DNA of 64,000 bases, taken from contig JACAFF010000022.1 of NCBI GenBank assembly GCA_013388455.1, positions 41,866 to 105,865 on the forward strand. The letters run 5' to 3'. The notes beneath the pieces were generated by a model that saw nothing but the letters and a program-made list of their open reading frames with translations, was not told where the DNA came from and ran no database searches. Position numbers and translations under genes: made by a program. Below are positions 13,225 through 45,331 of this stretch, piece by piece (the stretch's first letter is position 1; each line of letters begins with the position of its first letter). This stretch comes from Nitrospirota bacterium. GTDB taxonomy: Bacteria > Nitrospirota > Thermodesulfovibrionia > Thermodesulfovibrionales > SM23-35.

Positions 13225-14547
13225 GTGTTGATAACGTTGAAAAAAAATATAATCTCTGTTGGAATTATCGGGTTTGGAACAGTAGGTAAAGGCACGGTCC
13301 GTATTCTCCTTGAGAACAGGGATATTCTAAGGGAAAGACTCGGTTTTGATATACAGGTTAAAAGAGTTGCTGTGCGTGATATAAAAAAAGACAGAGGCAT
13401 AAAACTACCAAAAGGTATGATCACAAAAAATGTGCATTCTGTGCTCAATGATCCAGAGATAGACATTGTTGCAGAACTTATAGGTGGGATATCACCGGCA
13501 AAGGACTTTATCCTTACAGCAATAAGAAATGGCAAACATATAGTGACTGCAAACAAAGCGCTTCTGGCAACAGAGGGCAATGAAATATTCAATGCTGCGC
13601 AAAAAGCCGGGATTGAGATCGGGTTTGAAGCATCAGTGGCTGGCGGTATTCCAATTATAAAAGTCATACGTGAAGGTCTTGTTGCAAATAGATTTAAGGC
13701 TATATACGGCATCATAAATGGAACTTCTAATTACATACTCACAAAAATGACAGATGAAAACGTCGAGTTTGAAGATGCACTCAAAGAGGCTCAGGAACTC
13801 GGTTATGCTGAAGCTGATCCAACATTGGACATAGAGGGAATCGATTCTGCACATAAACTTGCCATACTCGCATTTCTTGCTTATGGGTTACCCTTTCATT
13901 TTAAAGATATATATGCCGAGGGAATTTCCAGAATTACACAGGAGGATATAAAATTTGCTTCAGAACTTGGTTATAAAATAAAACTTCTCGCTATTGCAAA
14001 AGACAAGGATAACTTGATAGAACTAAGGGTTCATCCAACGATGATCCCCGAAAATTATCTCATATCAAAAGTGGATGGCTCTTTTAATGCAATATACATA
14101 GAAGGAGATGCCACAGGTTCTACTTTATATTATGGAAGAGGTGCAGGAGACCTCCCAACAGGAGGTGCAGTTGTAAGTGATATAGTTGGGATTGCAAAGG
14201 ATATAAGGAAAAATGTTACAGAAAGATTACCTTTATTAGCCAAGCCAAAAAGGAAAATAAGAATCAAAAAAATGGATGAAGTAACATCAATGTATTACTT
14301 CAGGTTTACTGCACTTGATAAACCCGGTGTGCTTTCAAAAATATCAGGAATTCTCGGAAACAATAATATCAGTATTGCTTCTGTTATACAGAAAGGCAGA
14401 AGAGTTGGTAAGGCCGTTCCACTCGTTGTACTAACTCACGAAGCAAAAGAGAAAAATGTCAGAAAGGCTCTAAAAGAAATAGACCGCCTGCCTGTTGTTA
14501 TGGGTAAAACAGTACTTATCAGGGTTGAGGACAAAGAAACAGGCTAA
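13225..14547 (+). CDS. hom: homoserine dehydrogenase
   Basis: 440 aa; GFGTVG NAD site, TANKALLA, GIINGTSNYIL, C-terminal ACT domain. Start uncertain: GTG at 13225 or TTG at 13237. Confidence 0.9.
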   Translation: MLITLKKNIISVGIIGFGTVGKGTVRILLENRDILRERLGFDIQVKRVAVRDIKKDRGIKLPKGMITKNVHSVLNDPEIDIVAELIGGISPAKDFILTAIRNGKHIVTANKALLATEGNEIFNAAQKAGIEIGFEASVAGGIPIIKVIREGLVANRFKAIYGIINGTSNYILTKMTDENVEFEDALKEAQELGYAEADPTLDIEGIDSAHKLAILAFLAYGLPFHFKDIYAEGISRITQEDIKFASELGYKIKLLAIAKDKDNLIELRVHPTMIPENYLISKVDGSFNAIYIEGDATGSTLYYGRGAGDLPTGGAVVSDIVGIAKDIRKNVTERLPLLAKPKRKIRIKKMDEVTSMYYFRFTALDKPGVLSKISGILGNNNISIASVIQKGRRVGKAVPLVVLTHEAKEKNVRKALKEIDRLPVVMGKTVLIRVEDKETG

Positions 14548-14560: not shown

Positions 14561-15343
14561 ATGAAATTTAGTGAGGAACAGCACCTCCGTTACCTGCGAC
14601 ATATAATGCTCCCCGAAGTCGGGATAGAAGGGCAGATTAAGATTTCTAATGCAAAGGTCTTCGTAGTTGGTGCTGGGGGACTCGGCTCACCAGTTGGTTA
14701 TTACCTCTCAGCAGCAGGGGTTGGAACCATAGCATTCATTGATAATGACAACGTTGATTTAAGCAATCTCCAGCGACAGATAGCTCACAGCACAAAGACA
14801 CTCGGCAAACCAAAAGTTGATTCTGCAAAAAAGACATTCGAATCTCTCAATCCCGATGTCCATATCGTTGCAATCAGGGACAGATTAACAAAACTGAATG
14901 TCCTTGAGCACATAAAAAATTACGATATTGTAGTAGATTGCAGTGATAACTTTTCTACCCGTTTTCTTGTAAACGACGCTTGCGTTATGTCTAAGAAACC
15001 TCTGGTTACAGGAGCTATTTTCAAGTTCGAAGGCCAGTTGACGGTTGTAGTCCCGGGGGATGGTCCTTGCTACCGGTGTCTTTTCGAAGAACCACCTCCG
15101 CCCGGTGTCCTTCCCGCACCCTCAGAAGTCGGGCTTTTTGGAGCAATCCCGGGCGTTATCGGGACATTGCAGGCAGCAGAGGTCCTTAAACTAATCCTGC
15201 AAATTGGCACTTTACTCAAAGGTGAGCTTCTCATATATAATGCACTCAAACCTTCATTCAGGAAAGTAAAAATCCCGAAAAACCCTAATTGCCCTGTCTG
15301 CAGCGATAAACCAACAATAACTAAGTTGATTGAGTACAGCTAA
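14561..15343 (+). CDS. MoeB/ThiF/HesA-family E1-like adenylyltransferase (candidate sulfur-carrier activator)
   Basis: RYLRHIMLPEVG, GAGGLGSP nucleotide loop, NLQRQ, CYRC and CPVC zinc motifs. ATG at 14561 preferred over the ORF-track 14495, which overlaps hom. Confidence 0.85.
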   Translation: MKFSEEQHLRYLRHIMLPEVGIEGQIKISNAKVFVVGAGGLGSPVGYYLSAAGVGTIAFIDNDNVDLSNLQRQIAHSTKTLGKPKVDSAKKTFESLNPDVHIVAIRDRLTKLNVLEHIKNYDIVVDCSDNFSTRFLVNDACVMSKKPLVTGAIFKFEGQLTVVVPGDGPCYRCLFEEPPPPGVLPAPSEVGLFGAIPGVIGTLQAAEVLKLILQIGTLLKGELLIYNALKPSFRKVKIPKNPNCPVCSDKPTITKLIEYS

Positions 15344-15366
15344 CCCGAAAAATGCATATGTTGTGG
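15341..15366 (+). repeat. partial left end of MITE-like element (copy G)
   Basis: TAACCCGAAAAATGCATATGTTG matches the TTAACCCGAATAATGCAGACATTG ends of copies A, B and E; begins at the moeB-like stop codon. Confidence 0.5.
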
Positions 15367-15377
15367 AATGTGGAATG

Positions 15378-15554
15378 GGGTCGGACTTGTTTATTGCAAT
15401 TTGTCTTTTCATTTAGCATATTTAAAACATTTTCCATATCCGCTTTAAAGGTTTCTCCTTCTTTCAAATATCTGGTGATTACCGATGGGTCTTTTTGAAG
15501 ATAGAATGCTATTTCTTTACTCTTATACCCAAATTCCCTATCTGTAATAAATGC
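15378..15554 (-). pseudogene. C-terminal remnant of an HTH (DnaA-C-like) domain gene, possibly a Y1-transposase-associated family
   Basis: Minus-strand reading frame ...REFGYKSKEIAFYLQKDPSVITRYLKEGETFKADMENVLNMLNEKTNCNKQVRP, preceded by an in-frame stop. Architecture parallels the remnant at 21232-27. Confidence 0.4.
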
Positions 15555-15897
15555 CTAACAGTCCTGTATCTTCTGTTGTAATACATTGTGTAACTCTGGT
15601 TTATACCCTGAAGAATTTTTGGGGGCTGAAGTCGAAGCGTAAGCCTCAGAGATAAAATATGCAACTACACCAAAATATAAAAATAAAGCCATGTTTTTAT
15701 ACTAAGGTAGTTTATTTTGTTTTATAAATTGAGTTATTGCCAGATATGCTATTTTCATAAAATTATTGAGTTGACCCGCCTGAGGAGGGTAAATCCGCCT
15801 CAGGCAAATCAGTTAAATAAATTTTTAAGCAATGCCTAAATTATCTGGGTGAACCTTCTCAGCATTAAACAAATATTTATTCTGATATTTCAAATAG

Positions 15898-18063
<2,166 letters not shown>

Positions 18064-18105
18064 CTATTGTTTTAAACCCAAAGGGTTTCTCATTGAAAAT
18101 TACTA

Positions 18106-18543
18106 TTATTTTTTACATTTTTCACACAGGCCATTAAATACAATTTTAGTATCTATAATTGCCAATTTTTCATATAAATCTTCTGGAATTTCAATGTTAT
18201 CTAAACGCTCATCATAAATATCAATAATTCTATTGCATTTTACGCAATGGAAGTGATTGTGTCGTTTTGTAACGCCATCATACCTTCTTATGTCTTGCAC
18301 TCCTTCTACAAGTTTTGCCACTCCTATTTCCACAAATAATTGAAGCGTTCTATTAACAGTGTCAAAAGAAATATTAGGAAATTTTTGTTTTACTCTCTTA
18401 TATATCTTTGTTACAGAAGGATGGTCATTAAATTTTACTAATTCTTTATATACCTCAACCCGTTGAGGTGTTACCTTTAAATTGTTTTTTTGACACGCTT
18501 CATAAAAAGCTGACAAAAAAGAATCTAACATTTCCTTTTTCAT
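18106..18543 (-). CDS. perR: Fur-family peroxide-responsive repressor (PerR-like)
   Basis: Fur fold with HNHFHCVKC...C..C metal sites; sits 51 nt upstream of katG on the same strand; ATG at 18543 preferred over the TTG at 18579. Confidence 0.8.
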   Translation of the reverse strand: MKKEMLDSFLSAFYEACQKNNLKVTPQRVEVYKELVKFNDHPSVTKIYKRVKQKFPNISFDTVNRTLQLFVEIGVAKLVEGVQDIRRYDGVTKRHNHFHCVKCNRIIDIYDERLDNIEIPEDLYEKLAIIDTKIVFNGLCEKCKK

Positions 18544-18550
18544 AATTAAT

Positions 18551-18579
18551 ATTATATAGTAATAATTCCTATTAATCAA
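18551..18579 (-). promoter_or_regulatory. candidate perR-katG promoter (TTGATT-17-TATAAT) overlapping an AT-rich imperfect palindrome
   Basis: Minus strand reads TTGATTaataggaattattactaTATAATattaattATG, leaving only 7 nt between the -10 and the ATG. Confidence 0.35.
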
Positions 18580-18795
18580 GTGCTATCTAAATCTTTTAAA
18601 ATCTACTTACTTAAAACCAATTCGTTATTTTAATAATTCATAGAAAATATATTGAAAAGTATTACGGAAAATCTTTTCAGAAACCGGAAACTTTCAAGAA
18701 ATAAAAGGTAGCAACAAAGAACTCTTTCAAATTCTTATCAATTTAAGCGGTCGGATTTTAATAGCTATAACGAGAAATAGAATATGATTGTAACA

Positions 18796-19197
18796 TCAAA
18801 ATAAGCTGATATTGCTTTCGCCGCCTCCAATTAATGGGAGTACCTTTTCAACGGTAAAATATACTAAAAATTTTGGACCTTTATTCTTGTCCTCTTCAGG
18901 TGTTAAATTGCGTCTGGTCATTTTAGCTATTAAGGCTGAGTCAGTCTCTTCCTTTACCTTTTTCAAAAACAGCCTTACCCCTCTATAACCTGCATTATTT
19001 TCAATAAATAAAAATGCGGCATATGGATTTGATTGCAAGTTATGATGAGTAAGACGTTCTCTCATTATAAAAGCTAATGTTCCGTCTTCAAAAACATGAG
19101 GGACAGAATAGATTGCTATATCTACCTTGCCTTTTGAATCAGCGGTAGATAAAATACCTATGCCATTTGCGCTTCTGAAATATTCTTTGAGTGTCAT
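18796..19197 (-). CDS. pyridoxamine 5'-phosphate oxidase-family FMN-binding protein
   Basis: About 133 aa split-barrel-like sequence (GILSTADSKGKVDIAIY..., FLFIE...GYRGVRL); start at MTLKEYF. Confidence 0.6.
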   Translation of the reverse strand: MTLKEYFRSANGIGILSTADSKGKVDIAIYSVPHVFEDGTLAFIMRERLTHHNLQSNPYAAFLFIENNAGYRGVRLFLKKVKEETDSALIAKMTRRNLTPEEDKNKGPKFLVYFTVEKVLPLIGGGESNISLF

Positions 19198-19204
19198 GTT
19201 TCTC

Positions 19205-19768
19205 CTATTTTTGCTCAGTTTTAATAAGTTTAGAGGTATCATATTGCTTATCCCTCAAACGAGAGAGAATTGCTTTATATACCTCTGGCTCAATCTCCTT
19301 TGTGCGGCTCAAAATCCAAAGGTATTTCCGACTCGGATGTCCTATAACGGCATATTCATAATTTTTACCCAGATCAATTATCCAATAGTCTCCAGCAAAA
19401 GGCCAGAAAAAAGATACCTTCAACTTGGCATTTGTTTCTTTATCGACTATCCATGCTTTACCTTTTGCAGACCTAATTTTGCCGCTGAAAGATTTGTCAT
19501 AACATTCATTTAGAACAGAGATTTTACCATCATCTCTCAGGGTATACGTTGCCTTACTTCCTACACAACCCTCCTGAAAGATGTGGGGATATCTTGCAAT
19601 CTCATACCATGTTCCTGCATAGCGTGTTAAATCCACATAAGGCACAATCTGTAAAGGCAGATAAGTTTTTTCCTTGGTACCCATGCATCCCATTAAATTC
19701 AGAAACATTGAAGTGATGATTAAAATACAGAATGCTATTAACCTTGATGTAAAATTATATCGATTCAT
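19205..19768 (-). CDS. blc: bacterial lipocalin (Blc-like outer-membrane lipoprotein)
   Basis: Lipobox LMGC; lipocalin motifs GTWYEIARYP, YWIIDL...YEYAVIG.P.R.YLWILSR. Confidence 0.88.
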   Translation of the reverse strand: MNRYNFTSRLIAFCILIITSMFLNLMGCMGTKEKTYLPLQIVPYVDLTRYAGTWYEIARYPHIFQEGCVGSKATYTLRDDGKISVLNECYDKSFSGKIRSAKGKAWIVDKETNAKLKVSFFWPFAGDYWIIDLGKNYEYAVIGHPSRKYLWILSRTKEIEPEVYKAILSRLRDKQYDTSKLIKTEQK

Positions 19769-19956
19769 TTCTCGTCTTTGTTACCAATAACAGAAACTTT
19801 TGCATTTACAGGTCAATGAAACCTGCTTAGATACTTTTCTGATTTTCTTTATAATTCTACCTTCAGACTATAAACCGGACTTCTTGAACGGTTGTTTCAT
19901 TTCTTATTAATTATATATAATATATAAAATAATTTCTCAATTGCAACTTGTGATTT

Positions 19957-21204
19957 GTGGCAAAGACAAACAGGAATAAATCACTGGAACATACAGCAAC
20001 GATCATACATGAAAAATCAGTAGCAAGCATTGAATTCTCACTATGCTGGGAAAACTCCGCTATATTCCACACCGACTGCTTTTTTGCAGGGAAAGTGAAT
20101 TTTTACCGTGACATCTTTCCGCAGAAGATTAGCGATTCGCTAATGGGAAAATCAAAAGGAGATACAATAGTAATCCCAAACATTATAAAAGACATTGTAT
20201 CGCCCTACTCACAGAATTATGAGTTCTCTATTGAACAAAGACAATTTGACCATCTTTACACTGCTCCATTAAAGACAGAGCCTCGATTTGGACGTTTTTA
20301 TCCAAAAGGCCTGCTGAAGGCGCTTCCGGGCATCTTTCGCGGGAACGTTGAGCCATTTCGATGTTCGGGGATAACAGATGCTACCATTACCGTGGATTTT
20401 AATCATCCGCTTTCACTTATGAATGGCAATCTTACTATGGCTATAAAAGATGTAAGGAGGAATAGCGGGATACTTGGTGGGTCATGTACCGACTGGATGG
20501 AAATAATAACCTCCGGCCCTGGGATGCAGACACGCTGCCGAAGTATTCCCACAGATTTCTTTTCGGATGAACCTTTCAGGAGAATAAATGAACATATTGA
20601 TGCAGACTTCTATAAAAAACCTCGTCTTGTTACCCATATTGATGATAGAGCCATATCAGTAATCAGTGATTTATATGGTCAGACACTGGAAAATGGGATG
20701 AAGGTTCTGGATCTTATGAGCAGCTGGAGGTCACATATACCCCAGAACATAAAACTTGAATCGCTTGTCGGGCTTGGGCTCAATCGGGAGGAGATGTTGC
20801 AGAATCCCCAACTTACCGATCAAGTTATACATGATCTGAATAGAGATCCATTGCTCCCCTTCACCGACAACACATTCGATGCAGTTATTTGTACCGTTTC
20901 TGTGGAATACCTGATATACCCCTTCGAAGTTTTCGTGGAAATAGCAAGGGTTCTAAAAACAGGCGGGTATTGTATGGTTACCTTTTCAAATCGGTGGTTT
21001 CCGCCCAAGGTTATAAAGATATGGACTGAACTCCACGATTTTGAACGGATGGGTCTCATTCTTGAATATTTTTTACAAAAAGGCTTATATAAAAACCTTA
21101 AAACCTTTTCGATGAGAGGACTTCCAAGAAATGAGGATGATAGATATTATCCAGCTATGCCTTATTCAGATCCGGTATATGCGGTGTGGGGACAAAAAGG
21201 GTAA
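19957..21204 (+). CDS. SAM-dependent methyltransferase (type 11 domain) with ~200-aa N-terminal domain of unknown function
   Basis: C-terminal VLDLMSSW...FDAVICTVSVEYL...VLKTGGYCMVTFSN is a class I MTase core; GTG start uncertain. Confidence 0.65.
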   Translation: MAKTNRNKSLEHTATIIHEKSVASIEFSLCWENSAIFHTDCFFAGKVNFYRDIFPQKISDSLMGKSKGDTIVIPNIIKDIVSPYSQNYEFSIEQRQFDHLYTAPLKTEPRFGRFYPKGLLKALPGIFRGNVEPFRCSGITDATITVDFNHPLSLMNGNLTMAIKDVRRNSGILGGSCTDWMEIITSGPGMQTRCRSIPTDFFSDEPFRRINEHIDADFYKKPRLVTHIDDRAISVISDLYGQTLENGMKVLDLMSSWRSHIPQNIKLESLVGLGLNREEMLQNPQLTDQVIHDLNRDPLLPFTDNTFDAVICTVSVEYLIYPFEVFVEIARVLKTGGYCMVTFSNRWFPPKVIKIWTELHDFERMGLILEYFLQKGLYKNLKTFSMRGLPRNEDDRYYPAMPYSDPVYAVWGQKG

Positions 21205-21231
21205 GAAAGCTTATAGGGTTTCTTGGGGTTG

Positions 21232-21427
21232 CACCTTGACGAAAGACAAAGTGACCTTACGTAATTCCTTTTACTCAAAGATACAGATTGGAGAATATTT
21301 TAGTAATTTAAGTTATTCTGCAGTAGTAAAGATATATGAGCGGTTTAAAAGAAGATTGAAAGAAAACACAAGATTAAGAAGAGAGGTAGAGAAAATAGAG
21401 AGACAATTGTCCTATGTCAAAGTGTGA
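21232..21427 (+). pseudogene. C-terminal remnant of an HTH (DnaA-C-like) domain gene, same family as 15378-15554
   Basis: ...KIQIGEYFSNLSYSAVVKIYERFKRRLKENTRLRREVEKIERQLSYVKV*. The N-terminal part of the ORF-track ORF is read-through of the MTase 3' end. Terminal AAGTGTGACCCC resembles the inverted AAGTCCGACCCC at 15378-89. Confidence 0.45.
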
Positions 21428-21842
21428 CCCCTCTCATTTTTCCGCTAAATTAATTATCCCTGGCCATTTTTTAACAGAAATTATCTTACACTGCCAGGAA
21501 CAATCTCCGTATGAGGCATGTGGTATTCTTGCAGGGAAAAACAATGTCGTAGAAAAAGTCTTCAAGATGACTAATGTCGAAAAATCTTCTGTAAGTTATC
21601 TGATGGATTCAAGGGAACAATTTATTGCCATGAAAGAAATGAGCGGGCTTGGACTCGCTATGGTCGCAATATATCACTCTCATCCTGTTTCCTCTGCATA
21701 TCCTTCGCCCAAAGACATAAGCCTCGCATTTTACCCTGACACATTTCATGTCATCGTAAGTCTTGCTTCCGGTGCTGCCGTAATCAAAGCCTTTGAGATA
21801 AAAGATGGCGTCAGAGAAATAGAAATCATAGAGACTCATTAA
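21414..21842 (+). CDS. JAMM/MPN+ metalloprotease (Mec+/HcyD-like)
   Basis: EACG...(E), HSHPVSSAYPSPKD = JAMM motif H-x-H-x7-S-x2-D; 142 aa, the size of CysO/HcyS-processing enzymes. Confidence 0.85.
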   Translation: MSKCDPSHFSAKLIIPGHFLTEIILHCQEQSPYEACGILAGKNNVVEKVFKMTNVEKSSVSYLMDSREQFIAMKEMSGLGLAMVAIYHSHPVSSAYPSPKDISLAFYPDTFHVIVSLASGAAVIKAFEIKDGVREIEIIETH

Positions 21843-22020
21843 CCCGAATAATGCAGACATTGCTCGAAAATTTCTTTAACTCGATGAATTTATTAAATTA
21901 TTCAGATTCGTTCGATGAATAAAAATATTCGTAAAACCATTAGTTAAAGGTACACTAAGGTATCAAAAAATAAATTTTCTCGCAACATCTGCATTATTCA
22001 ATTGCATTATTTGGGTTAAT
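21839..22020 (+). mobile_element. MITE-like inverted-repeat element, copy A (longest)
   Basis: TTAACCCGAATAATGCAGACATTGCTCGAAAATTTCTTTAA ... AAATTTTCTCGCAACATCTGCATTATTCAATTGCATTATTTGGGTTAA; ~30-bp imperfect TIRs and no coding capacity. Confidence 0.7.
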
Positions 22021-22145
22021 TAGAACCATCCCTTTCAATTATTCTCTATTTTGAAGTAAAATTTAAAATCATTGCAGTCTATTTTAGTCGTTATTCCGGG
22101 CGAAACGAGGAATTTCTCAGTAATAGAGACTCAGGAGATATTTAT

Positions 22146-23390
22146 ATGGGTTATGTAAGAGGTCTTAAGTGCCGTGAGTGTGGCAGGCAATATGCTATCG
22201 CTCCAGTATATGTCTGTGAGTTCTGCTTTGGGCCTCTTGAGGTAGTATATGATTATGAAAGCATAAAGAAAGTATTAACAAAAAACATAATTGAAAAAAG
22301 GCCAAAAAATCTCTGGAGATACAAAGAGCTTCTGCCTATTGATGGGGAACCTCAGGCTGGATTAAATTCCGGCTTTACTCCGCTCGTTAAGGCTAAAAAT
22401 CTTGCGAAGATATTTGGCTTAAAAGAACTTTATATAAAAGATGACACAGTAGTTCATCCAACACTTTCATTCAAAGATAGGGTTGTTGCAATAGCATTAA
22501 CTAAGGCAAAAGAATTTGGTTTTGATACTGTCGCCTGTGCTTCAACAGGCAATCTTGCCCATTCAGTCTCTGCACATGGCGCAAAAGCTGGTTTTCAAAG
22601 GTTTATCTTTATTCCAGCAACTCTTGAAGCGAGTAAGATTATTGCTTCCTTAATTTACGAACCAAATCTTATTGCAGTTGATGGAAATTATGATGATGTG
22701 AATAGGTTATGTAGTGAAATAGCAAATAAATACAAATGGGCTTTTGTCAATATTAATATAAGACCTTTCTATGCAGAAGGATCAAAGACTCATGGATTTG
22801 AAATTGTTGAACAACTTGGATGGAAGACACCTGATAATATTATAATACCCTGTGCAAGTGGTTCACTTCTCACTAAGATATGGAAGAGTTTTAAAGAGCT
22901 TAAAGAGATTGGTATCATAGAGGAGCTCAATACAAAAGTCTTTGCTGCACAGGCAACAGGATGTTCTCCAATTACAACAGCAATAAAACAAGGTATTGAT
23001 GTGATAAGGCCGGTAAAACCTTATACAATCGCCAAATCACTCGCTATCGGGAATCCGGCTGATGGTTATTATGCTACACAGGTTATTAACGAAGCAGGAG
23101 GAACTGGCGAGGATGTATCAGATCAGGAGATAATAGATGGAATAAAAATCCTTGCACGGACAGAAGGGATATTTGCTGAAACAGCAGGAGGTGTCACGGT
23201 TGCAGTTACAAAAAAACTTATTGAATCAGGCAAAATAAGCAGAAACGGTGTCACAGTAATTTGCATAACAGGAAATGGGCTAAAAACACAAGAAGCACTT
23301 AGTGGAAATACTATTCAACCATTTTTTATAAAACCTAATATTCGTTCATTTGAGGATACATTAGAAAAAATTAGAGCAGGAGGAAAATAG
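22146..23390 (+). CDS. threonine-synthase-like PLP enzyme with N-terminal zinc ribbon (candidate MetM-type O-phosphohomoserine-dependent homocysteine synthase)
   Basis: CRECG...CEFC ribbon, PTLSFKDR PLP-lysine motif, fold-type II. Second ThrC paralog in the operon, immediately followed by a GG-terminal sulfur carrier. Confidence 0.7.
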   Translation: MGYVRGLKCRECGRQYAIAPVYVCEFCFGPLEVVYDYESIKKVLTKNIIEKRPKNLWRYKELLPIDGEPQAGLNSGFTPLVKAKNLAKIFGLKELYIKDDTVVHPTLSFKDRVVAIALTKAKEFGFDTVACASTGNLAHSVSAHGAKAGFQRFIFIPATLEASKIIASLIYEPNLIAVDGNYDDVNRLCSEIANKYKWAFVNINIRPFYAEGSKTHGFEIVEQLGWKTPDNIIIPCASGSLLTKIWKSFKELKEIGIIEELNTKVFAAQATGCSPITTAIKQGIDVIRPVKPYTIAKSLAIGNPADGYYATQVINEAGGTGEDVSDQEIIDGIKILARTEGIFAETAGGVTVAVTKKLIESGKISRNGVTVICITGNGLKTQEALSGNTIQPFFIKPNIRSFEDTLEKIRAGGK

Positions 23391-23663
23391 ATGGCTGTAA
23401 AAGTAAGGATACCTACCCCATTGCAGAAACTCACTGAAGGGAAAGAAGAAGTCGAAGGTTCTCCGGGGACTATAATAAATCTCATTAATGAGCTTGACAG
23501 GAAATATCCAGGAATTGCAGAAAGGATATCCGAAGGGGGCAAAATTAGAAGATTTATAAATATCTATTTGAATGAAGAGGATATCAGATTCCTTAAGAAT
23601 GAACAGACAGAGGTTAAAGACAATGATGAGGTATCAATTGTTCCTGCAATAGCAGGAGGATAA
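23391..23663 (+). CDS. MoaD/ThiS-family sulfur-carrier protein (C-terminal Gly-Gly)
   Basis: 90 aa, beta-grasp size, ends ...VSIVPAIAGG*; ATG directly follows the stop of the ThrC-like gene. Confidence 0.8.
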   Translation: MAVKVRIPTPLQKLTEGKEEVEGSPGTIINLINELDRKYPGIAERISEGGKIRRFINIYLNEEDIRFLKNEQTEVKDNDEVSIVPAIAGG

Positions 23664-23676
23664 ATCAGGAGGAATA

Positions 23677-23913
23677 ATGAAACAAAGGGTTAAGTTGACT
23701 TTTCCTCAGCATCTTATTAAAGAACCTGTTATTTTTACCATGGCGAAAAAATATGACATCATGCCGAATATACGGCGGGCAAGAGTCACAGAAACTGTTG
23801 GCGAAATGGTTCTTGAACTTGATGGTTCAGAAGAAAATCTTAATAAGGGTATTCAATCACTGAAAGATCAAGGAATTATTGTCGAACTCGCAGAAGGCGA
23901 TGTAATAGAATAA
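23677..23913 (+). CDS. stand-alone NIL-domain protein
   Basis: 78 aa, F...IKEPVI..........NI..A.V.....G.M.LEL.G pattern as in the NIL domain of MetN C-termini; strong AGGAGG RBS. Confidence 0.65.
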   Translation: MKQRVKLTFPQHLIKEPVIFTMAKKYDIMPNIRRARVTETVGEMVLELDGSEENLNKGIQSLKDQGIIVELAEGDVIE

Positions 23914-23999
23914 ATTTAATACCCAAATCAACCGATAAGATGACAGAACCCTTATATCGCTTGAGCTGGGAAATACTTTAAATTAAATTCGGAGATTTT

Positions 24000-25091
24000 A
24001 TGGAATTAGGAGAAAGTAATAGTAGTAGTATTTCATGGAGAGGTATTATTGAAGAGTATCGTGAATTTCTTCCAGTTACAGATAATACACCAATTGTAAG
24101 CCTCAGAGAAGGAAATACTCCTCTTATTAAAAGTCAGAACATCAAGAAAAAACTCGACCTCGATATTGAACTGTATTTCAAATTTGATGGTGCAAATCCT
24201 ACAGGGTCTTTTAAGGACAGGGGCATGACTCTCGCAATTTCTAAAGCTATGGAGAATAAAGTCAGCGCTGTAATATGCGCCTCGACAGGAAATACTTCGG
24301 CTTCTGCTGCCGCATATGCTGCAAGGGCAAATATCAGAGCTATCGTCCTGATACCAGAAGGTAAAATTGCGCTCGGAAAACTTGTGCAGGCAATCGTTCA
24401 CGGTGCTCACGTCCTTCAGGTCGATGGAAATTTTGATGTGGCCTTAAATATAGTCAAGTCACTTGTGGAAAAACATCCTATAACACTGGTAAATTCCATT
24501 AATCCATTCAGAATTGAAGGTCAGAAATCTGCTGCATTTGAGGTATGTGATCAACTTGGTTTTGTTCCAGAATATCATTCCCTGCCAGTTGGTAATGCAG
24601 GGAATATCACAGCATACTGGAAAGGTTATAATGAATATTATAAAGCTAAAAGAATTTCGTCGCTTCCAGTTATGCTTGGTTTCCAGGCAGCAGGAGCTGC
24701 ACCTATTGTCCTCGGCAAGCCGGTTGAAAAACCCGAAACTGTTGCAACAGCAATAAGAATTGGTAATCCTGCAAGCTGGCAAGGTGCTGTAGCAGCACGG
24801 GATGAATCGGGAGGAAGAATTGACTCAGTAACTGACGATGAAATATTGAATGCATATAAATTAATTGCTTATGCAGAGGGAATTTTCTGTGAGCCTGCAT
24901 CAGCAGCCTCTCTTGCAGGTGTGATAAAATTACACAAAGAAAATTACTTCAAACCCGGCGCTATTGTTGTATGCACATTAACAGGAAATGGCCTTAAGGA
25001 CCCTGATACAGTATTTAAGGTAGCCAGGGAACCAATTAAGGTCAAAGCTGATTTAGGCACTGTAGAAAAAGCAATAGAAGGTATCATATGA
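24000..25091 (+). CDS. thrC: threonine synthase
   Basis: 363 aa; EGNTPL, NPTGSFKDRGM (PLP lysine), ASTGNTSASAAAYA, short-type ThrC. Confidence 0.9.
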   Translation: MELGESNSSSISWRGIIEEYREFLPVTDNTPIVSLREGNTPLIKSQNIKKKLDLDIELYFKFDGANPTGSFKDRGMTLAISKAMENKVSAVICASTGNTSASAAAYAARANIRAIVLIPEGKIALGKLVQAIVHGAHVLQVDGNFDVALNIVKSLVEKHPITLVNSINPFRIEGQKSAAFEVCDQLGFVPEYHSLPVGNAGNITAYWKGYNEYYKAKRISSLPVMLGFQAAGAAPIVLGKPVEKPETVATAIRIGNPASWQGAVAARDESGGRIDSVTDDEILNAYKLIAYAEGIFCEPASAASLAGVIKLHKENYFKPGAIVVCTLTGNGLKDPDTVFKVAREPIKVKADLGTVEKAIEGII

Positions 25092-26296
25092 AATACATAA
25101 TTATTATTGGTGATGGGATGGCTGACAGACCGCTTAAAGAACTTAAGGGTAAAACCCCTCTGCAAAAAGCAAGGACTCCTAATATGGACAAACTTGCAAG
25201 GGAAGGTTTCATTGGCAGGATAAAAACTATACCTCATGGATTTCATCCGGGCTCTGATGTTGCTAATCTTAATATCCTCGGATATAATCCTGAAGAATTC
25301 TATTCAGGCAGAGCACCTTTAGAAGCACTTAGTATGGGTGTTAAACTTAAAGAAAATGATGTAGCATACAGATGTAATTTAGTTACACTTAAGTACAATA
25401 AAGATAAAACAAAAGCTGTAATGGAAGATTATAGCAGCGGCCATATTCCCACAGCAGAAGCAAAAGAACTTATCCAAGAAATCAATGAAAAATTAGGCTC
25501 TGAAAAGATCAGCTTTTATGCCGGTGTCAGCTACCGACATATTATGGTATGGTCTTCAGGCGCAGTGAATATTGAATGTACCCCTCCACATGACATTACT
25601 GGTAAAAATATTGCAGATTATCTTCCAGTTGGAGACCACGAAGAGTTCTTAAGAGAAATAATGTTAAAGGCGAGTGCCATACTTGGAGGACATCCTATTA
25701 ACAGAAACCGTATAAGAAAAGGTGAAAAGCCTGCCAATGGTATATGGCTATGGGGACAGGGCAAAAGAAAAATCCTTCCAACTTTCATTGAAAAATATGG
25801 ATTGAATGGCTCTCTCGTATCTGCTGTCGACCTTATCAAAGGTATTGGTATAAGTGCAGGATTTGAGATTCTCAATGTACCAGAAATTACCGGATATCTG
25901 GATACAAATTATTCAGGTAAGGCAGAGTCATCAATCAAAGCACTTCAAAAGGTTGACATTGCTTACATTCATGTAGAAGCACCTGATGAGGCAGGACATT
26001 CTGGCAATATTAAGGATAAGATTAAAGCAATAGAGGATTTTGACAAATTCGTTGTAGGTAATGTATTGAGGGGATTAAAATCTTTTACTGAATACAAAAT
26101 ATTGCTTTTGCCTGATCACGCTACCCCAATAGCAGTTAAAACCCATACTGACGAACCAGTGCCCTTTGTTATTTTTGATAGTCGGGTTAAAAGAACGAAT
26201 AAGAATGTGTCTTTCGATGAATCTATATCTCAAAGAGACGGGATTCTCGTTTTTGAGGAAGGTTACAGGTTAATGGATTATTTTATAAAAGGTTAA
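25088..26296 (+). CDS. ApgM-type cofactor-independent phosphoglycerate-mutase-family protein, probable non-orthologous homoserine kinase
   Basis: 402 aa alkaline-phosphatase-superfamily protein (IIIGDGMADRP, HVEAPDEAGH, LLPDHATP); overlaps the thrC stop by 4 nt (ATGA). Confidence 0.75.
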   Translation: MKYIIIIGDGMADRPLKELKGKTPLQKARTPNMDKLAREGFIGRIKTIPHGFHPGSDVANLNILGYNPEEFYSGRAPLEALSMGVKLKENDVAYRCNLVTLKYNKDKTKAVMEDYSSGHIPTAEAKELIQEINEKLGSEKISFYAGVSYRHIMVWSSGAVNIECTPPHDITGKNIADYLPVGDHEEFLREIMLKASAILGGHPINRNRIRKGEKPANGIWLWGQGKRKILPTFIEKYGLNGSLVSAVDLIKGIGISAGFEILNVPEITGYLDTNYSGKAESSIKALQKVDIAYIHVEAPDEAGHSGNIKDKIKAIEDFDKFVVGNVLRGLKSFTEYKILLLPDHATPIAVKTHTDEPVPFVIFDSRVKRTNKNVSFDESISQRDGILVFEEGYRLMDYFIKG

Positions 26297-38306: not shown

Positions 38307-39158
38307 TTAAAAGAATTCCTTCATTATATTATCTAACACTGACAGATCAACTGGCTGTTTGACTAATGGATTGTCTTTAATGATAGGTATTCTTTCCTCT
38401 AAAATCGGACGGCGGTTTTTATAGATTATACCTATAGGGATATGTTCTCCCCATTCAAGAGCCTTTTTAAAAGCTTCTATTCTGTTTTCAGGGTTGTATT
38501 CAGGCTCTATTTTATATATCCTTTGGTTATACCATTCATATGTATTAATTTTATTGAATGTCACACATGGTTGGAGAATATCTACAAGGGAAAAACCTTT
38601 GTGTTTAATTGCCTCTTTTATGATTTCTTTTAAATGCAGAGTATCACCTGCAAAACTTCTTGCTATAAAACTGCAGTCATTTGCAACCGCAATTGCTATA
38701 GGATTCAACTGTTCAGAAAAGACCCCGAAAGGCTGATTTTTAGTTATCATTCCTTCCAGACTTGTAGGGGATGCCTGACCTTTTGTAAGCCCGTAGATCT
38801 GGTTATCGTGCACAAAGAGTTTAACGTTTATGTTTCTTCTCATCGCATGTATAAAGTGGTTCCCACCCTCACCGTAACAGTCTCCGTCTCCTGCTACTGC
38901 TATGACAAGCATTTCATGATTTGCAAGCCTCATTCCCGTAGCAACCGGCAATGTCCTTCCATGAAGTCCGTTGAAAGTATTACATTTCAGATAGTGCGGG
39001 AATTTCCCTGCCTGTCCGATCCCTGATACAATCGTAAATTGATGAGGCTCAAGTCCAAGCTCGACCATTGCCTCTTTAAATGCTTTGAGGATGCCGAAGT
39101 TGCCACATCCCGGACACCATGCAGGTATCTGACCTTTATAATCTTCTAATACTGACAT
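38307..39158 (-). CDS. 2-oxoacid:ferredoxin oxidoreductase, beta (TPP-binding) subunit
   Basis: WCPGCGNFG, GDGD...GGNH TPP motif; overlaps the alpha-subunit gene end. Confidence 0.9.
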   Translation of the reverse strand: MSVLEDYKGQIPAWCPGCGNFGILKAFKEAMVELGLEPHQFTIVSGIGQAGKFPHYLKCNTFNGLHGRTLPVATGMRLANHEMLVIAVAGDGDCYGEGGNHFIHAMRRNINVKLFVHDNQIYGLTKGQASPTSLEGMITKNQPFGVFSEQLNPIAIAVANDCSFIARSFAGDTLHLKEIIKEAIKHKGFSLVDILQPCVTFNKINTYEWYNQRIYKIEPEYNPENRIEAFKKALEWGEHIPIGIIYKNRRPILEERIPIIKDNPLVKQPVDLSVLDNIMKEFF

Positions 39159-40863
39159 CTAACTCTCTTAAAAGTCCTTCAACAGTAAATGGCCTTCCGT
39201 CATATTTATTAATATGTGCCTTGAATTCATAGCCCATCTCTGCTTTCATAAGACGTGCAAATTGTCGAGTTGCATTCTGTTCAATACAAACGGTCATCTC
39301 TGCATTCTTCAGCAAAGTCAAATAATCAAATACTGTTGCAGGGAAAGGATAAATTTCACTAAAATGAAGCATCGCTATCTCTTTATTTTTCGAAAGAATA
39401 TCGACCACCTCTTTCATGACTCCAAATGTAGAGCCCCATCCTGCAATAATCAGGCGGGGCTTACTGTCACCATAAAGCACAGGAGGACTAATATCTTTTC
39501 TTATATGAGGCAGTTTATTGAAAAGCCTTTTCTGCACCATCTTTATTCGCTTCTCTGCATCTTCTATAATATGACCATCCTCATCATGCTCATCGCTGTC
39601 TGTGACTATTAATGATTTAGAAACTCCAGGAACTCCGAGAGGCGACACCCCTGTTTCTGTAAAGGCATGCCTTTTGTAGTTGTTAAAATTTTTCAATTCT
39701 TCTTCTCTGAGTCTATAGTCTTTATAAAAAATTCTGCTCATATCAAAAGCATCGAAAGTCCATCCAGAATCAGCCAGATATTGGTCAAACAATATAAAGG
39801 CAGGAATCTGATATTTCTCAGCCATATCGAATGCTTTATTAGTAAGATAAAATGCCTGTTCAGGTGTTCCAGGGGCAAAAATAACACGGGGAAATTCCCC
39901 ATGTGCAGCGTGGATTGTGAAAAGTAAATCAGACTGCTCTGTTCTCGTTGGAAGACCTGTAGCTGGAGCTGGTCTTTGCCCGAGTGCAATAACAACAGGG
40001 GTCTCAGTCATCCCAGCCAGAGATAGCCCTTCTACCATGAGAGCAAATCCTCCACCAGCAGTTCCGGTCATTGCTCTTACGCCTGCGAATGATGCACCTA
40101 TGGCCATATTGATAGCTGCGATCTCATCCTCAGCCTGTTCAACAATAATCCCATACTCTTTCTCTTTTCCTGCAAGATAATTCATTATTCCTGTAGAAGG
40201 TGTCATAGGATATGCAGAATAAAATTTGCATCCAGATGCAATCGCACCGAGTCCTATAGCTTCAATACCATTTATAAGCATCTTCTTCCCTGATAAAGGT
40301 GCTGGTATAAGAGAACAATGGAGACAGTTTTTCACTGCATAGTCATATCCTGCTTGTGCTGATTTAATATTTGCATTAATGACCCCCTCACCTTTCTTTT
40401 TGAAAGTATCTTTTATGATCGCATTAAGGATATCGAGTTCCATCTTAAGCATTCCAAGGACAGCGCCGGTTGCAACAGTATTTGCCATAATCTTGCTGCT
40501 ACCGTGCTCAATAGCAAGCTTTGTGAATGGGACATCAAGATAAAATCCCTTTCCTTCTCTTTTTACTTCTCCTATAGCAGATGAATCATTAATGATCTGG
40601 CCATTATCTACGACTTCAAAAGCATGCTGTTCTATACTTGCTCTATCGAGAGCAATGAGTATATGAACATTTTCGCTGATAGCAGTGACCGGGGTGTTTG
40701 AAATCCTTATCTGGTAGAAATTGTGACCTCCCCGTATTCTTGATTCATAATCCTGGCTGGTTAAGACATTGTATCCCGAACGTGAAAATACCTTTGCGAG
40801 TGTATCTCCAATGGTCTGGATACCCTGTCCTGCCTCACCGCCTATCTTGATTGAATAGTCCAC
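39136..40863 (-). CDS. 2-oxoacid:ferredoxin oxidoreductase, fused gamma-alpha subunit
   Basis: 575 aa; N-terminal gamma-type domain (GGEAGQGIQT), then alpha domain (YPMTPST, GASFAG.RAMT.T). Confidence 0.9.
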   Translation of the reverse strand: MDYSIKIGGEAGQGIQTIGDTLAKVFSRSGYNVLTSQDYESRIRGGHNFYQIRISNTPVTAISENVHILIALDRASIEQHAFEVVDNGQIINDSSAIGEVKREGKGFYLDVPFTKLAIEHGSSKIMANTVATGAVLGMLKMELDILNAIIKDTFKKKGEGVINANIKSAQAGYDYAVKNCLHCSLIPAPLSGKKMLINGIEAIGLGAIASGCKFYSAYPMTPSTGIMNYLAGKEKEYGIIVEQAEDEIAAINMAIGASFAGVRAMTGTAGGGFALMVEGLSLAGMTETPVVIALGQRPAPATGLPTRTEQSDLLFTIHAAHGEFPRVIFAPGTPEQAFYLTNKAFDMAEKYQIPAFILFDQYLADSGWTFDAFDMSRIFYKDYRLREEELKNFNNYKRHAFTETGVSPLGVPGVSKSLIVTDSDEHDEDGHIIEDAEKRIKMVQKRLFNKLPHIRKDISPPVLYGDSKPRLIIAGWGSTFGVMKEVVDILSKNKEIAMLHFSEIYPFPATVFDYLTLLKNAEMTVCIEQNATRQFARLMKAEMGYEFKAHINKYDGRPFTVEGLLRELDVSIRRL

Positions 40864-40878: not shown

Positions 40879-41346
40879 TTAAACAAAGCTTTTTCTTAAA
40901 TTATTCAACCAAACAATATGGCTTTTCTCTTCATTGATAATTTTATCCAGAATCTCTTTTTCCCCAGTTGTTTCTTTCAACGCATAATAATAAAGTAACG
41001 TCTCGCGTTCAAAACAGAGAGCAAAATCAATAGCCTCTCGTGCAGATTTTACATGTTCAAGTGAAGGCAGACATTTATCTTTTCCAAGAAAGAATTCAGA
41101 ATCAATGATAGCTCTTAGATAAAGTTTGATCTCATCCCATCCTTCAGGCTCTTCGTCGTTTATCTTATTTAGCAAATCGGAAAAACTCCTACCATGTTTT
41201 GTCTCATGTGCTGCAAGTAACTCGAAGAGTTTTTTCAATTCGCTATTATCCTTGAATTTTTCTGCCATGAGTGTATAAAACTCATAACCTAACTTTTCTG
41301 TCTGAATAGCCTGTTCAACAACCTCTCTTATTGAAAATTTCACCAT
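40879..41346 (-). CDS. ferritin-like/rubrerythrin-family diiron protein (no rubredoxin domain)
   Basis: Two E...E..H pairs (EKLGYEFY...HETKH; ERETLLYY...EEKSH); GGAGGA RBS before the ATG at 41346. Confidence 0.7.
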   Translation of the reverse strand: MVKFSIREVVEQAIQTEKLGYEFYTLMAEKFKDNSELKKLFELLAAHETKHGRSFSDLLNKINDEEPEGWDEIKLYLRAIIDSEFFLGKDKCLPSLEHVKSAREAIDFALCFERETLLYYYALKETTGEKEILDKIINEEKSHIVWLNNLRKSFV

Positions 41347-41390
41347 CGTATATCCTCCATTCAATTTATTCGTTAAAACTATATATATTT

Positions 41391-41729
41391 CTAAATTACA
41401 TCTTTAATATCTTTAATAGAAATACTATGACTATCAATAAGGTAACCCAGAAGACTAAGACCTCCGCAAGGTTTTGCATCTGTCTTTTTCACAAAAAAGT
41501 CACAGTCTTCTTGAGAGAAGGGACAAATTGCACAGATAGTCTGAATTAATTCTTCATCTATTATACTGTCTGCCTTGTGCTGGAAATCTTTAAAATAAAT
41601 CTCTATTCCTTTATTTATTAATCTCTCTATAATTGTAAAGCCAAAACATTCAAGTTCTTCATTCTTGTTAGGTTTATAATAATGACAGTAACGAAGACAT
41701 ATTGTCTTGTCTAAATCAATTGCTTTCAT
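41391..41729 (-). CDS. Cys-rich hypothetical protein (112 aa)
   Basis: CLRYCHYY...C and CAICPF...C....C motifs; sits between the pseudo-kinase and the ferritin-like/OFOR genes on the same strand. Confidence 0.5.
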   Translation of the reverse strand: MKAIDLDKTICLRYCHYYKPNKNEELECFGFTIIERLINKGIEIYFKDFQHKADSIIDEELIQTICAICPFSQEDCDFFVKKTDAKPCGGLSLLGYLIDSHSISIKDIKDVI

Positions 41730-41735
41730 GTTTCT

Positions 41736-43925: not shown

Positions 43926-44044
43926 TATCCTTTGCTCCAGTAGTTTCTTTCATTAGATACTAAAATATTCAGTTAAGTATATCATAAAAAGGTATGGAGT
44001 ATATGAGAAACAATATTCATTATGATATAAAATATATATAACTT

Positions 44045-45190
44045 ATGAAATTTTTTCTCGCTAAAGAGGCTCCTCTTAAATGGCTTGAAATACCTTCTGT
44101 GTATAACATAAAAAAAGATGACCTCTATGAGCTTGATGATGATTCCTTCACTTTTTTAATACAATGTGCCTCTGAAACTGGCTGCGACTCAGAATATACT
44201 GATTTTGTAATGTATTGTCTTAATGAGGGAATTTTAACAAGAGACAAAATAAAAATGAATTATCCACCTGTGATAAAATCTCTAATTCCTTCACTTCGGT
44301 ATCTTGAATTGCAGATAACCAACAGATGCAACCTTAGGTGTAGGCATTGTTTTATTACAGAAGGAAAATATTCAGAACTTTCCATCACACAGATAAGAAC
44401 CATCCTTAAAGAATTCGAGGAAATGCAAGGTTTGAGGGTAATGATATCCGGAGGTGAACCCCTAATTCACAGTTCATTCGAAGAAATAAATGAGATGCTT
44501 CCTGATTTTTTCATGCGAAAAGTATTATTCACAAATGGTTTATTATTTAATAAACAGATTTTAAAAAAACTTCATGTGGACGAAATCCAGATTAGTATAG
44601 ATGGCCTTGAAACATCCCATGATTTATTGAGAGGAAAAGGCACTTACAAAAATACCCTTAAGGCTTTGAAAAATGCAATTGATTGCGGATTTGAAGTCTC
44701 TGTATCAACTATGGTTCATTCCGGAAATCTCAAAGATTTTCAGAAAATGGAGAAACTCTTTAAAAGCATGGGGATAAAGGACTGGACTGTTGACATCCCC
44801 TGTGTTACCGGTAGACTTAAAGAAAATCCTGATTTATTAGTCCCTCCTGAAATAGCTGGAAAATATTTCAGATATGGTTATGGAGAAGGACTCCATAAAG
44901 GGTCAACAGGATTTGCCTGTGGCTTACATTTGATGGGTATAACATCTGATGGTAGAGTTTCAAAATGCACATTTTTTTCTGAATATTCTGTTGGAACTAT
45001 TGAAGAAGGATTAAGACAATGCTGGCAGAAAATAAAACCTATCAGACTTAATGAACTTAAATGTGATTGTGAACATATTGAATTATGTAGAGGAGGATGC
45101 AGATATAGAGCACTCCTTCTTGGAGACCTATATGGGAAAGACCTTTACAAATGTTTTTATTATGGTAAAATTAATAAATACAGGACATGA
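44045..45190 (+). CDS. radical SAM/SPASM-domain peptide-maturase-like enzyme with RRE-like N-terminal extension
   Basis: CNLRCRHCF (CxxxCxxC), GGEPL, C-terminal Cys cluster CDCEHIELCRGGCRYR; about 85 aa precede the rSAM core. Confidence 0.8.
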   Translation: MKFFLAKEAPLKWLEIPSVYNIKKDDLYELDDDSFTFLIQCASETGCDSEYTDFVMYCLNEGILTRDKIKMNYPPVIKSLIPSLRYLELQITNRCNLRCRHCFITEGKYSELSITQIRTILKEFEEMQGLRVMISGGEPLIHSSFEEINEMLPDFFMRKVLFTNGLLFNKQILKKLHVDEIQISIDGLETSHDLLRGKGTYKNTLKALKNAIDCGFEVSVSTMVHSGNLKDFQKMEKLFKSMGIKDWTVDIPCVTGRLKENPDLLVPPEIAGKYFRYGYGEGLHKGSTGFACGLHLMGITSDGRVSKCTFFSEYSVGTIEEGLRQCWQKIKPIRLNELKCDCEHIELCRGGCRYRALLLGDLYGKDLYKCFYYGKINKYRT

Positions 45191-45224
45191 AGTCCTGTTT
45201 CCTCTTTGAAAGGAGGTGTACTTT

Positions 45225-45287
45225 ATGACAATAAAAAAAGTACAAAAAGGTGTTTGTACCAATTGTAAATGTAAAAGTTCCTGCTAA
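45225..45287 (+). CDS. 20-aa Cys-rich peptide MTIKKVQKGVCTNCKCKSSC (candidate RiPP precursor; not in ORF track)
   Basis: AGGAGG at 45211-45216, 8-nt spacer, ATG at 45225, TAA at 45285; 34 nt downstream of the rSAM/SPASM stop; followed by a strong hairpin. Confidence 0.55.
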   Translation: MTIKKVQKGVCTNCKCKSSC

Positions 45288-45298
45288 GTGGTAAAATT

Positions 45299-45331
45299 AA
45301 TAGAGGCTGGACTTGAAAGTCAGCCTCTATT
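45299..45331. terminator. hairpin between convergent genes (probable bidirectional terminator)
   Basis: AATAGAGGCTG-(11 nt)-CAGCCTCTATT, perfect 11-bp stem with additional inner pairing; lies between the peptide ORF and the ferredoxin gene. Confidence 0.5.

Follow-up and report, generated by a model that had tools for sequence, protein, structure and literature searches.

Why should a threonine operon encode, next to its threonine synthase, a second enzyme of the ThrC fold, a small sulfur-carrier protein and a free-standing NIL-domain protein? The question is raised by positions 21414–25091 of a 64,000-nucleotide stretch of DNA (contig JACAFF010000022.1, here called the window) from a Nitrospirota metagenome-assembled genome of the Thermodesulfovibrionia type. 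We conclude that the locus very probably makes homocysteine from O-phosphohomoserine (OPH) via a thiocarboxylate on the carrier, by a route of the type formed by the pyridoxal-phosphate (PLP) enzyme MetM and its carrier MetO, and we propose that it is one biosynthetic operon for both fates of OPH. By analogy with the methionine importer MetN, the NIL protein may be a methionine-responsive regulatory subunit of the homocysteine branch, a role that falls a little short of probable. When the pathway assignment and the NIL role are taken together, with the pathway weighted most, the whole account is likely to be right. A pathway of this kind has been known since 2024, and the novelty lies in the conserved free NIL protein. 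The genes concerned are the following:

13225–14547, + strand: hom, homoserine dehydrogenase with a C-terminal ACT domain (NF004976, 560 bits; Pfam Homoserine_dh, NAD_binding_3 and ACT)
14561–15343, + strand: E1 adenylyltransferase of the MoeB/ThiF family, 260 amino acids (ThiF, 4.9e-80; CxxC...CxxC zinc site)
15344–21413: inserted oxidative-stress block of about 6 kb (katG, perR-like, PNPOx-like, blc and a gene for a 415-amino-acid methyltransferase-like protein)
21414–21842, + strand: JAMM/Mec-type metalloprotease (Prok-JAB, 1.2e-19; HSH...S..D motif in the translation)
22146–23390, + strand: MetM-like ThrC-fold PLP enzyme with a zinc ribbon (PALP, 3e-63)
23391–23663, + strand: MetO-like sulfur carrier of the ThiS/MoaD beta-grasp fold, 90 amino acids, C-terminus AIAGG (ThiS, 2.2e-16)
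23677–23913, + strand: stand-alone NIL-domain protein, 78 amino acids (PF09383, 8e-18, 64.5 bits versus a cut-off of 24)
24000–25091, + strand: thrC, genuine threonine synthase (TIGR00260, 326 bits, cut-off 167)
25088–26296, + strand: predicted HomK, homoserine phosphotransferase of the apgM-like family (TIGR02535, 550 bits, cut-off 446)

All five open reading frames (ORFs) of 21414–25091 were present on the + strand at these coordinates. An earlier note on this DNA had given their order as JAMM protease, ThrC-like enzyme with a zinc ribbon, carrier ending in AIAGG and abutting the enzyme stop, 78-amino-acid NIL protein and genuine ThrC, and the coordinates together with the Pfam and NCBIfam matches confirmed it. 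The note had also placed the E1 gene (14561–15343) and hom upstream of an inserted cassette; both do lie there, and the cassette is the katG/perR/PNPOx/blc/methyltransferase block. Its inventory of the operon was right for the five ORFs and missed HomK (25088–26296). The ATG of the carrier gene abuts the TAG of the MetM-like enzyme gene, the NIL gene starts 13 nucleotides past the carrier stop and is preceded by AGGAGG, and homK overlaps thrC by 4 nucleotides. The ThrC at 24000–25091 scored 500 bits against the Aquifex structure 2zsj and 462 bits against the Thermus structure 1uim. The product of 25088–26296 passes phosphoglycerate-mutase models besides TIGR02535 (‘proposed homoserine kinase’), a family that complements an E. 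coli thrB mutant (GapMind 2026 preprint), and its context with thrC, hom and NIL supports its prediction as HomK. Among the scanned window ORFs of at least 150 amino acids, no further methionine genes were found.

The chemical steps that we infer from these genes form a branched pathway. Homoserine dehydrogenase would make homoserine, and HomK would phosphorylate it to OPH, which ThrC would turn into threonine in competition with the MetM-like enzyme. On the homocysteine branch, E1 would adenylate the C-terminal Gly-Gly of the 90-amino-acid carrier, and sulfide would convert the acyl-adenylate to a thiocarboxylate. The MetM-like enzyme would then eliminate phosphate from OPH and add the carrier thiocarboxylate at the gamma carbon, and JAMM would free homocysteine from the carrier and, in most relatives, also trim the residues beyond Gly-Gly. 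The NIL protein might be a free-standing dimeric sensor, similar to the C2 domain of MetN, of methionine (or of homocysteine or S-adenosylmethionine (SAM)), throttling the homocysteine branch at the protein level; it would then stand in for the SAM riboswitch by which metM is controlled in Actinomycetota. It could act on the branch enzyme or on the loading of the carrier.

Both the MetM-like enzyme, which has the tryptophan-synthase-beta fold, and the window ThrC are PALP enzymes. The former begins with a CxxC...CxxC ribbon (amino acids 8–32) that matches the NinF zinc-ribbon model, and the lysine of its SFKDR motif is present (K110). It lies just under the cut-off of PRK08197, a model of zinc-ribbon ‘threonine synthases’. 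Its matches to solved threonine synthases reached 191–194 bits, versus 462–500 bits for the window ThrC. Comparison of 88 MetM-like with 58 ThrC sequences gave 35 clade-specific positions, and the clade motifs include STGNLA in MetM versus STGNTS in ThrC and N-x-R-P-F-Y in MetM versus S-x-N-P-F-R in ThrC. In the alignment to Thermus thermophilus ThrC the numbering is offset by 11 throughout, and three of the clade positions thereby correspond to T88, S155 and R160 of that enzyme, which are putative phosphate ligands in the Thermus structures. They are changed from T to L, from S to N and from R to Y, and a new arginine stands three residues earlier. Such a rebuilt phosphate site would fit thiocarboxylate addition at C-gamma, as against the ThrC reaction, in which water is added at C-beta with the help of the retained phosphate.

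Searches with the window MetM-like and NIL proteins gave only Nitrospirota relatives of more than 80% identity, and wider diversity was sampled through a library of 1.84 billion representatives and a mixed profile. The library contained full-length zinc-ribbon relatives of the enzyme at 35–57% identity, and a profile built from the nearest of these brought in members from Nitrospira and Actinomycetota. A ThiS-like gene lies beside MetM-like homologues of 49–61% identity in Nitrospira, Actinomycetota and other lineages, and it is directly 3′ in Nitrospira sp. Nam80, several Actinomycetota, a lineage at 56% and a GC-rich lineage at 49%. The Nonomuraea gerenzanensis chromosome (filed as a plasmid record) holds a 54%-identical copy with a carrier gene downstream. 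Homologues that stand beside a carrier gene and are linked to a SAM riboswitch, mostly from Actinomycetota with one other lineage, are 51–57% identical to the window enzyme.

All seven distinct non-Nitrospirota loci that have no NIL gene right after the carrier gene carry this riboswitch (RF00162, 49–81 bits) directly in front of the enzyme gene. According to PMC12172450, which cites Hasebe 2024, a SAM riboswitch is also present upstream of metM in Streptomyces albulus. The riboswitch is direct evidence that these MetM homologues serve methionine synthesis. In contrast, scans of 19 loci with NIL right after the carrier (the window, Nitrospira, the locus L092 and 16 further Nitrospirota loci) gave no RF00162 match, the window being scanned to an E-value of 1 around the gene. 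No riboswitch or other Rfam element was found near the operon genes of the window, and promoter and terminator scans of the window did no better than on shuffled sequence. In a mixed threonine and methionine operon, shut-off by SAM would also cost threonine, and control at the protein level therefore makes sense.

In a scan of one genome per species the ThrC-like protein had at least 597 relatives, and the loci of the best 80, all from Nitrospirota, were fetched with their flanks. Their recurrent gene order is lipA, an aminotransferase gene (alaAT), hom, E1, JAMM, MetM-like enzyme, carrier, NIL, ThrC and HomK. Of the 80 loci, 79 have the carrier gene 3′ of the enzyme gene, and the one exception (L003) ends about 100 nucleotides beyond the enzyme; the same arrangement was seen in 7 of 8 distinct loci of other lineages checked, with L091 as the exception. 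NIL follows the carrier directly in every locus that reaches at least 400 nucleotides past the carrier gene (76/76), and because the run of MetM-like enzyme, carrier and NIL recurs throughout these loci it is not due to chance. NIL is followed by thrC in 56 loci and by homK in 13 that have no thrC at that position. On the other side, 27 loci have JAMM immediately 5′ of the MetM-like enzyme gene, 12 have E1 there and 28 have another gene; E1 immediately precedes JAMM or MetM in 36 related loci, and hom is syntenic in 34. The invariant core is enzyme, carrier and NIL, with homK close behind, and the ancestral order in Nitrospirota is hom-E1-JAMM-MetM-carrier-NIL-ThrC-HomK. The katG/perR island splits E1 from JAMM in the window; the two genes are adjacent in L001, L002, L076 and others, and these three, the closest relatives, are free of the island. 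The katG block was inserted locally into the operon and stands outside the pathway. No repeats flanking it were found, and its 415-amino-acid protein consists of a C-terminal methyltransferase domain and an N-terminal part of about 300 amino acids without assignment.

The carrier fell below the cut-offs of the MoaD, SAMP1, Urm1-like and ThiS equivalog models and is 42–48% identical to the carriers beside riboswitch-controlled MetM homologues. Residues beyond Gly-Gly are present in 72 of 79 Nitrospirota carriers (1–15 residues in all but two, with no conserved sequence), and a protease is therefore needed to expose their reactive end. In the window and its four nearest relatives the carrier ends at Gly-Gly, and JAMM is still beside the operon. 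Removal of a tail is thus not what JAMM is needed for in this genome. Mec+ hydrolyses CysO-cysteine, and HcyD hydrolyses HcyS-homocysteine. By analogy, the retention of JAMM despite a carrier that ends in Gly-Gly argues that it also acts as a hydrolase of the carrier-homocysteine adduct. On the desampylase model JAMM scored 64 bits, under the cut-off of 130. The E1 enzyme falls in the PRK05690 subfamily (295 bits, cut-off 266); it matches only positions 120–379 of the rhodanese-containing PRK08762 profile and has no rhodanese domain. Because this domain is missing, free sulfide is the likely sulfur donor, and direct attack of sulfide on the acyl-adenylate is likely to be the simplest donor chemistry.

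Several apparent fusions and neighbours were rejected. A candidate E1-MetM fusion (P0335, L090 7004–10068) comes from a frameshift-ridden long-read assembly with split PALP genes and is most likely an artefact; an E1 gene is nevertheless adjacent to the ThrC-like enzyme gene in that locus. An in-frame read-through from carrier to NIL in L027 was not counted as a fusion, since it is a single case with a 45-amino-acid spacer and NIL keeps its own start, and an 88-amino-acid ORF 3′ of the carrier in L088 is not NIL. Where ThrC-like representatives are extended at the C-terminus, the extra part is a PadR or LeuA-type domain rather than a carrier or NIL. Four zinc-ribbon ThrC-like proteins of 38–40% identity (P0334, P0352, P0317 and P0337) are fused C-terminally to a LeuA-type allosteric or a PadR winged-helix domain, and since both kinds of fusion exist, the zinc-ribbon ThrC-like family has taken on regulatory domains repeatedly, which speaks for the regulatory reading of NIL.

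The free NIL protein is more than 82% identical among its best 120 matches, all of them from Nitrospirota wherever the source is named. It is 78 amino acids long in 55 of 75 relatives, and nearly all others have 79–103 amino acids. Its gene overlaps the carrier stop codon in Nitrospira, and L092, from a GC-rich lineage, has a MetM-carrier-NIL triad in which NIL starts 3 nucleotides past the carrier stop. The protein is a free-standing ORF, fused neither to an ABC ATPase, as in MetN, nor to a ferredoxin, as in L-ASST. An AlphaFold2 model (predicted local distance difference test score, 82.8) showed a beta-alpha-beta-beta-alpha-beta topology. Its best structural match was the selenomethionine-bound C2 domain of E. 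coli MetN (3tuz; template modelling (TM) score 0.85, root-mean-square deviation 1.0 Å), with ACT domains next.

A profile of stand-alone NIL proteins matched MetN C2 (3dhx) with an E-value of 7e-10, and N31-I32-R33-R34-A35 of NIL aligned to N295-I296-I297-S298-A299 of MetN. In MetN, N295 hydrogen-bonds L-methionine and the N295A substitution abolishes binding, and A299 belongs to the strand that shifts register to lock the transporter (PMC6233128). By this alignment, the asparagine predicted to contact the ligand and the interface strand are conserved in the free NIL protein. The NIL domain of methanogen L-ASST has been proposed to mediate inhibition by methionine (PMC12068725). Neither does the window NIL contain a cysteine nor does its family have a conserved one, which excludes covalent carriage of sulfur; sulfide delivery, one of the roles raised in the earlier note, is thus unlikely if it is to proceed by covalent chemistry. 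The remark in the same note that no role of the free protein had been described agrees with the literature that we searched for ‘NIL domain’, which held no description of a stand-alone NIL in this context.

A metagenome scan with the NIL profile gave 80 high-GC loci (L094–L173). The NIL proteins of Actinomycetota have 78–80 amino acids, 38–42% identity and the same invariant motif, and in some loci they are encoded about 4 kb downstream of MetM-MetO. Directly 5′ of this NIL gene lies a LarE-like gene (286–304 bits on the LarE model), which ends 6–96 nucleotides before NIL in 54 of the 56 high-GC loci with enough upstream sequence (e.g. L094, 6147–7234); L083 (11256–12349) has the pair as well. 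The LarE-like proteins contain three invariant cysteines, a CxxC plus one. The gene order MetM, MetO, GroEL, HemQ, LarE-like, NIL was found in 12 of 26 long loci, and larB and larC were near the LarE-NIL pair in one locus only. No LarE homologue was found in the window or in the Nitrospirota loci, and the literature searched gave no description of a LarE-like/NIL pair. In L169 (2103–3546, GC 0.54), a NIL protein of this family that is 55% identical to that of the window is encoded between a large multi-pass membrane protein and a convergent PP-loop gene, judged by eye to be MurJ-like and MnmA-like, respectively, with no carrier and no LarE.

The MetM/MetO-type route sharing OPH with ThrC, which the earlier note had put forward, is supported by the riboswitch-linked homologues, the 34% identity between the MetM-like enzyme and the ThrC of its own operon, the 35 clade positions and the presence of hom and HomK. 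On the other side, the E1 is unlike MoeZ in having no rhodanese domain and the sulfur donor must therefore differ from that of the characterised system, and orthology to MetM rests on SAM-riboswitch-linked proxies and not on S. albulus MetM and MetO themselves. Instead, the enzyme could be an OPH sulfhydrylase acting on free sulfide, with carrier, E1 and JAMM serving molybdopterin synthesis, tRNA thiolation or protein modification. Sulfide would be plentiful in a lineage whose taxonomy points to a sulfur-cycling anaerobe, the NCBIfam name of the E1 would be ‘MoeB’, and MetM has neither E1 nor JAMM beside it in 28 related loci. However, the carrier gene comes after the enzyme gene in every sampled locus and phylum (L091 excepted), the carrier stays under the MoaD, ThiS and SAMP cut-offs, neither MoaE nor ThiG was found among the scanned window ORFs of at least 150 amino acids, and the characterised MetM uses the MetO thiocarboxylate (GapMind 2026). 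We consider a free-sulfide enzyme improbable. A second threonine synthase with a fortuitously clustered carrier is highly improbable: the gene is named ‘threonine synthase’ in every annotation source and its product reaches 286 bits on TIGR00260 (cut-off 167), but MetM is often misannotated in this way (GapMind 2026), a true ThrC is encoded 600 nucleotides downstream, the two enzymes differ at three putative phosphate ligands besides their low identity, and homologues are under SAM riboswitch control. Weak PADLOC matches (75 bits on E1-E2 models, covering the Rossmann part only, and 24 bits on JAB models) would allow E1, JAMM and a ubiquitin-like protein to be read as anti-phage conjugation machinery of the CBASS Cap2/Cap3 or Bil type. 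The lack of an E2 domain and of an effector, together with the position of the genes inside a conserved amino-acid biosynthesis operon, effectively refutes this; moreover, carrier, NIL and enzyme had no PADLOC match.

For the NIL protein, a role as sensor of the thiocarboxylate branch faces several observations that do not suit it. R33-R34 is invariant in stand-alone NIL proteins and absent from MetN, and the ligand may therefore not be methionine. The contrast between riboswitch and NIL rests on few independent lineages, and in L083 and L085 NIL occurs about 4 kb from a metM that is under riboswitch control. The LarE-NIL pairs, in which NIL is tied to a LarE-like PP-loop insertase (54/56 loci), had no SAM riboswitch upstream. 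NIL could instead be an accessory or adaptor of sulfur insertion that loads or hands over sulfur, its partners being E1 and carrier in Nitrospirota and, in Actinomycetota, a LarE-like enzyme of the [4Fe-4S] type, because both coupled partners handle adenylated carboxylates or thiocarboxylates. The close spacing of NIL to LarE-family genes, the three invariant cysteines of the partner (with larB and larC so rarely near), the recurrent MetM-MetO-GroEL-HemQ-LarE-NIL order and the invariant arginines, which could bind an anionic group, all suit such a function. On the other hand, NIL has no conserved cysteine, ligand sensing in MetN is the only experimentally defined role of the fold, the Nitrospirota loci have no LarE homologue, and the account of the characterised Streptomyces pathway in GapMind 2026 mentions no such factor. 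We regard an accessory function as rather unlikely. A wider proposal, that free NIL is a widespread module gating thiocarboxylate-based sulfur insertion, is tentative and on present evidence doubtful; in Nitrospirota the module would be an obligate third subunit of MetM/MetO that senses methionine at the OPH branch point and replaces the SAM riboswitch there, and in Actinomycetota it would control or feed the three-cysteine LarE-like insertase, which stands outside any lar cluster.

MetO, Mec, MoeZ and MetM from S. albulus (Hasebe 2024) are listed in GapMind 2026, which includes the pathway, so that the Streptomyces MetM/MetO route named in the earlier note was correct; the supplements of GapMind 2026 contain nothing on Dissulfurispira or MetM. 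Like the S. albulus system, the window has a ThrC-fold PLP enzyme, a ThiS-fold carrier gene directly downstream, an E1, a JAMM/Mec-type hydrolase and OPH as the logical substrate. It is a variant in that there is no SAM riboswitch, the E1 is without the MoeZ rhodanese domain, the genes are merged into a hom...thrC-homK operon and OPH would come from HomK rather than ThrB; an invariant NIL and a carrier that needs no C-terminal trimming are further differences. HomK itself resembles the BT2402 family, whose specificity glutamate is E299 in BT2402, in passing the trusted cut-off of TIGR02535 and in being encoded with thrC and hom, and differs in its link to the homocysteine branch, its gene directly following NIL in 13 loci.

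In the CysO/CysM/Mec+/MoeZ system of Mycobacterium tuberculosis, it is likewise on a PLP enzyme that a carrier thiocarboxylate attacks a phosphorylated hydroxy-amino acid, and the amino acid is then freed from the carrier by a JAMM protease. CysM differs in performing a beta-replacement on O-phosphoserine with a CysM/CysK fold, whereas gamma-replacement by a ThrC fold is proposed here, and no NIL is present there. The HcyS/HcyF/HcyD/MetY system of Wolinella succinogenes, reportedly described by Krishnamoorthy and Begley in 2011, also makes homocysteine from a carrier thiocarboxylate; its JAMM trims the tail and cleaves the adduct, and sulfide can attack the acyl-adenylate. It differs in using MetY (fold type I) on O-acetylhomoserine and in having no NIL. 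L-ASST (DUF39/COG1900 plus NIL-ferredoxin; MA1821/MA1822, DvMF_1464/DvMF_0262) is, like the present locus, a non-canonical anaerobe homocysteine route with a NIL domain. Unlike it, L-ASST starts from aspartate semialdehyde, does not have homoserine as an intermediate, carries NIL fused to a 4Fe-4S ferredoxin and involves neither a carrier nor a PLP enzyme. With MetN C2 the free NIL protein shares the Pfam family, the fold and the equivalents of N295 and A299; it differs as a free 78-amino-acid protein with Arg-Arg after Asn-Ile that is encoded with biosynthetic and not transport genes.

In Nitrospira sp. Nam80 (L081, 4924–10152), two thiocarboxylate systems stand in tandem, a CysO/CysK-M/E1 set being directly beside the MetM set. 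The upstream set consists of a 66-amino-acid ThiS-like gene, a CysK/CysM-type enzyme and an E1, and the downstream set of a MetM-like enzyme, a 92-amino-acid carrier, NIL, a second E1 and JAB.

Other parts of the window hold features apart from the operon. A thiamin pyrophosphate riboswitch (46–155, 69 bits) lies upstream of thiC (821–2116) and thiD (2116–2877). An oxygen-defence and redox cluster at 40879–52683 encodes three rubrerythrins, a flavodiiron-type protein, a nitroreductase, a multihaem cytochrome, an FMN reductase and two radical SAM proteins, and a 2-oxoacid:ferredoxin oxidoreductase (38307–40863) adjoins it. The AT-rich segment 56200–60395 (GC 0.31) has short ORFs only, beside a XerD-like integrase (59514–60395); they include a 144-amino-acid PIN-like ORF, judged from sequence alone, and two overlapping ORFs resembling a split Fic-type gene. 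This segment may be a small degraded mobile island.

The locus suggests that the whole Nitrospirota phylum, which spans sulfate reducers, sulfur disproportionators, magnetotactic Nitrospirota and nitrite-oxidising Nitrospira, has a thiocarboxylate route hard-wired into its threonine operon. This would explain methionine synthesis in organisms where MetM is annotated as a second threonine synthase. The invariant NIL protein points to a component or control step that is absent from the characterised system, and it offers a testable answer to the question of how flux from one transcript is split between threonine and methionine. The LarE-like/NIL pairing in Actinomycetota suggests a second, unstudied partner of NIL. 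If the wider proposal were true, NIL would be a general post-translational control or hand-off element common to three non-canonical sulfur-incorporation systems and the methionine importer.

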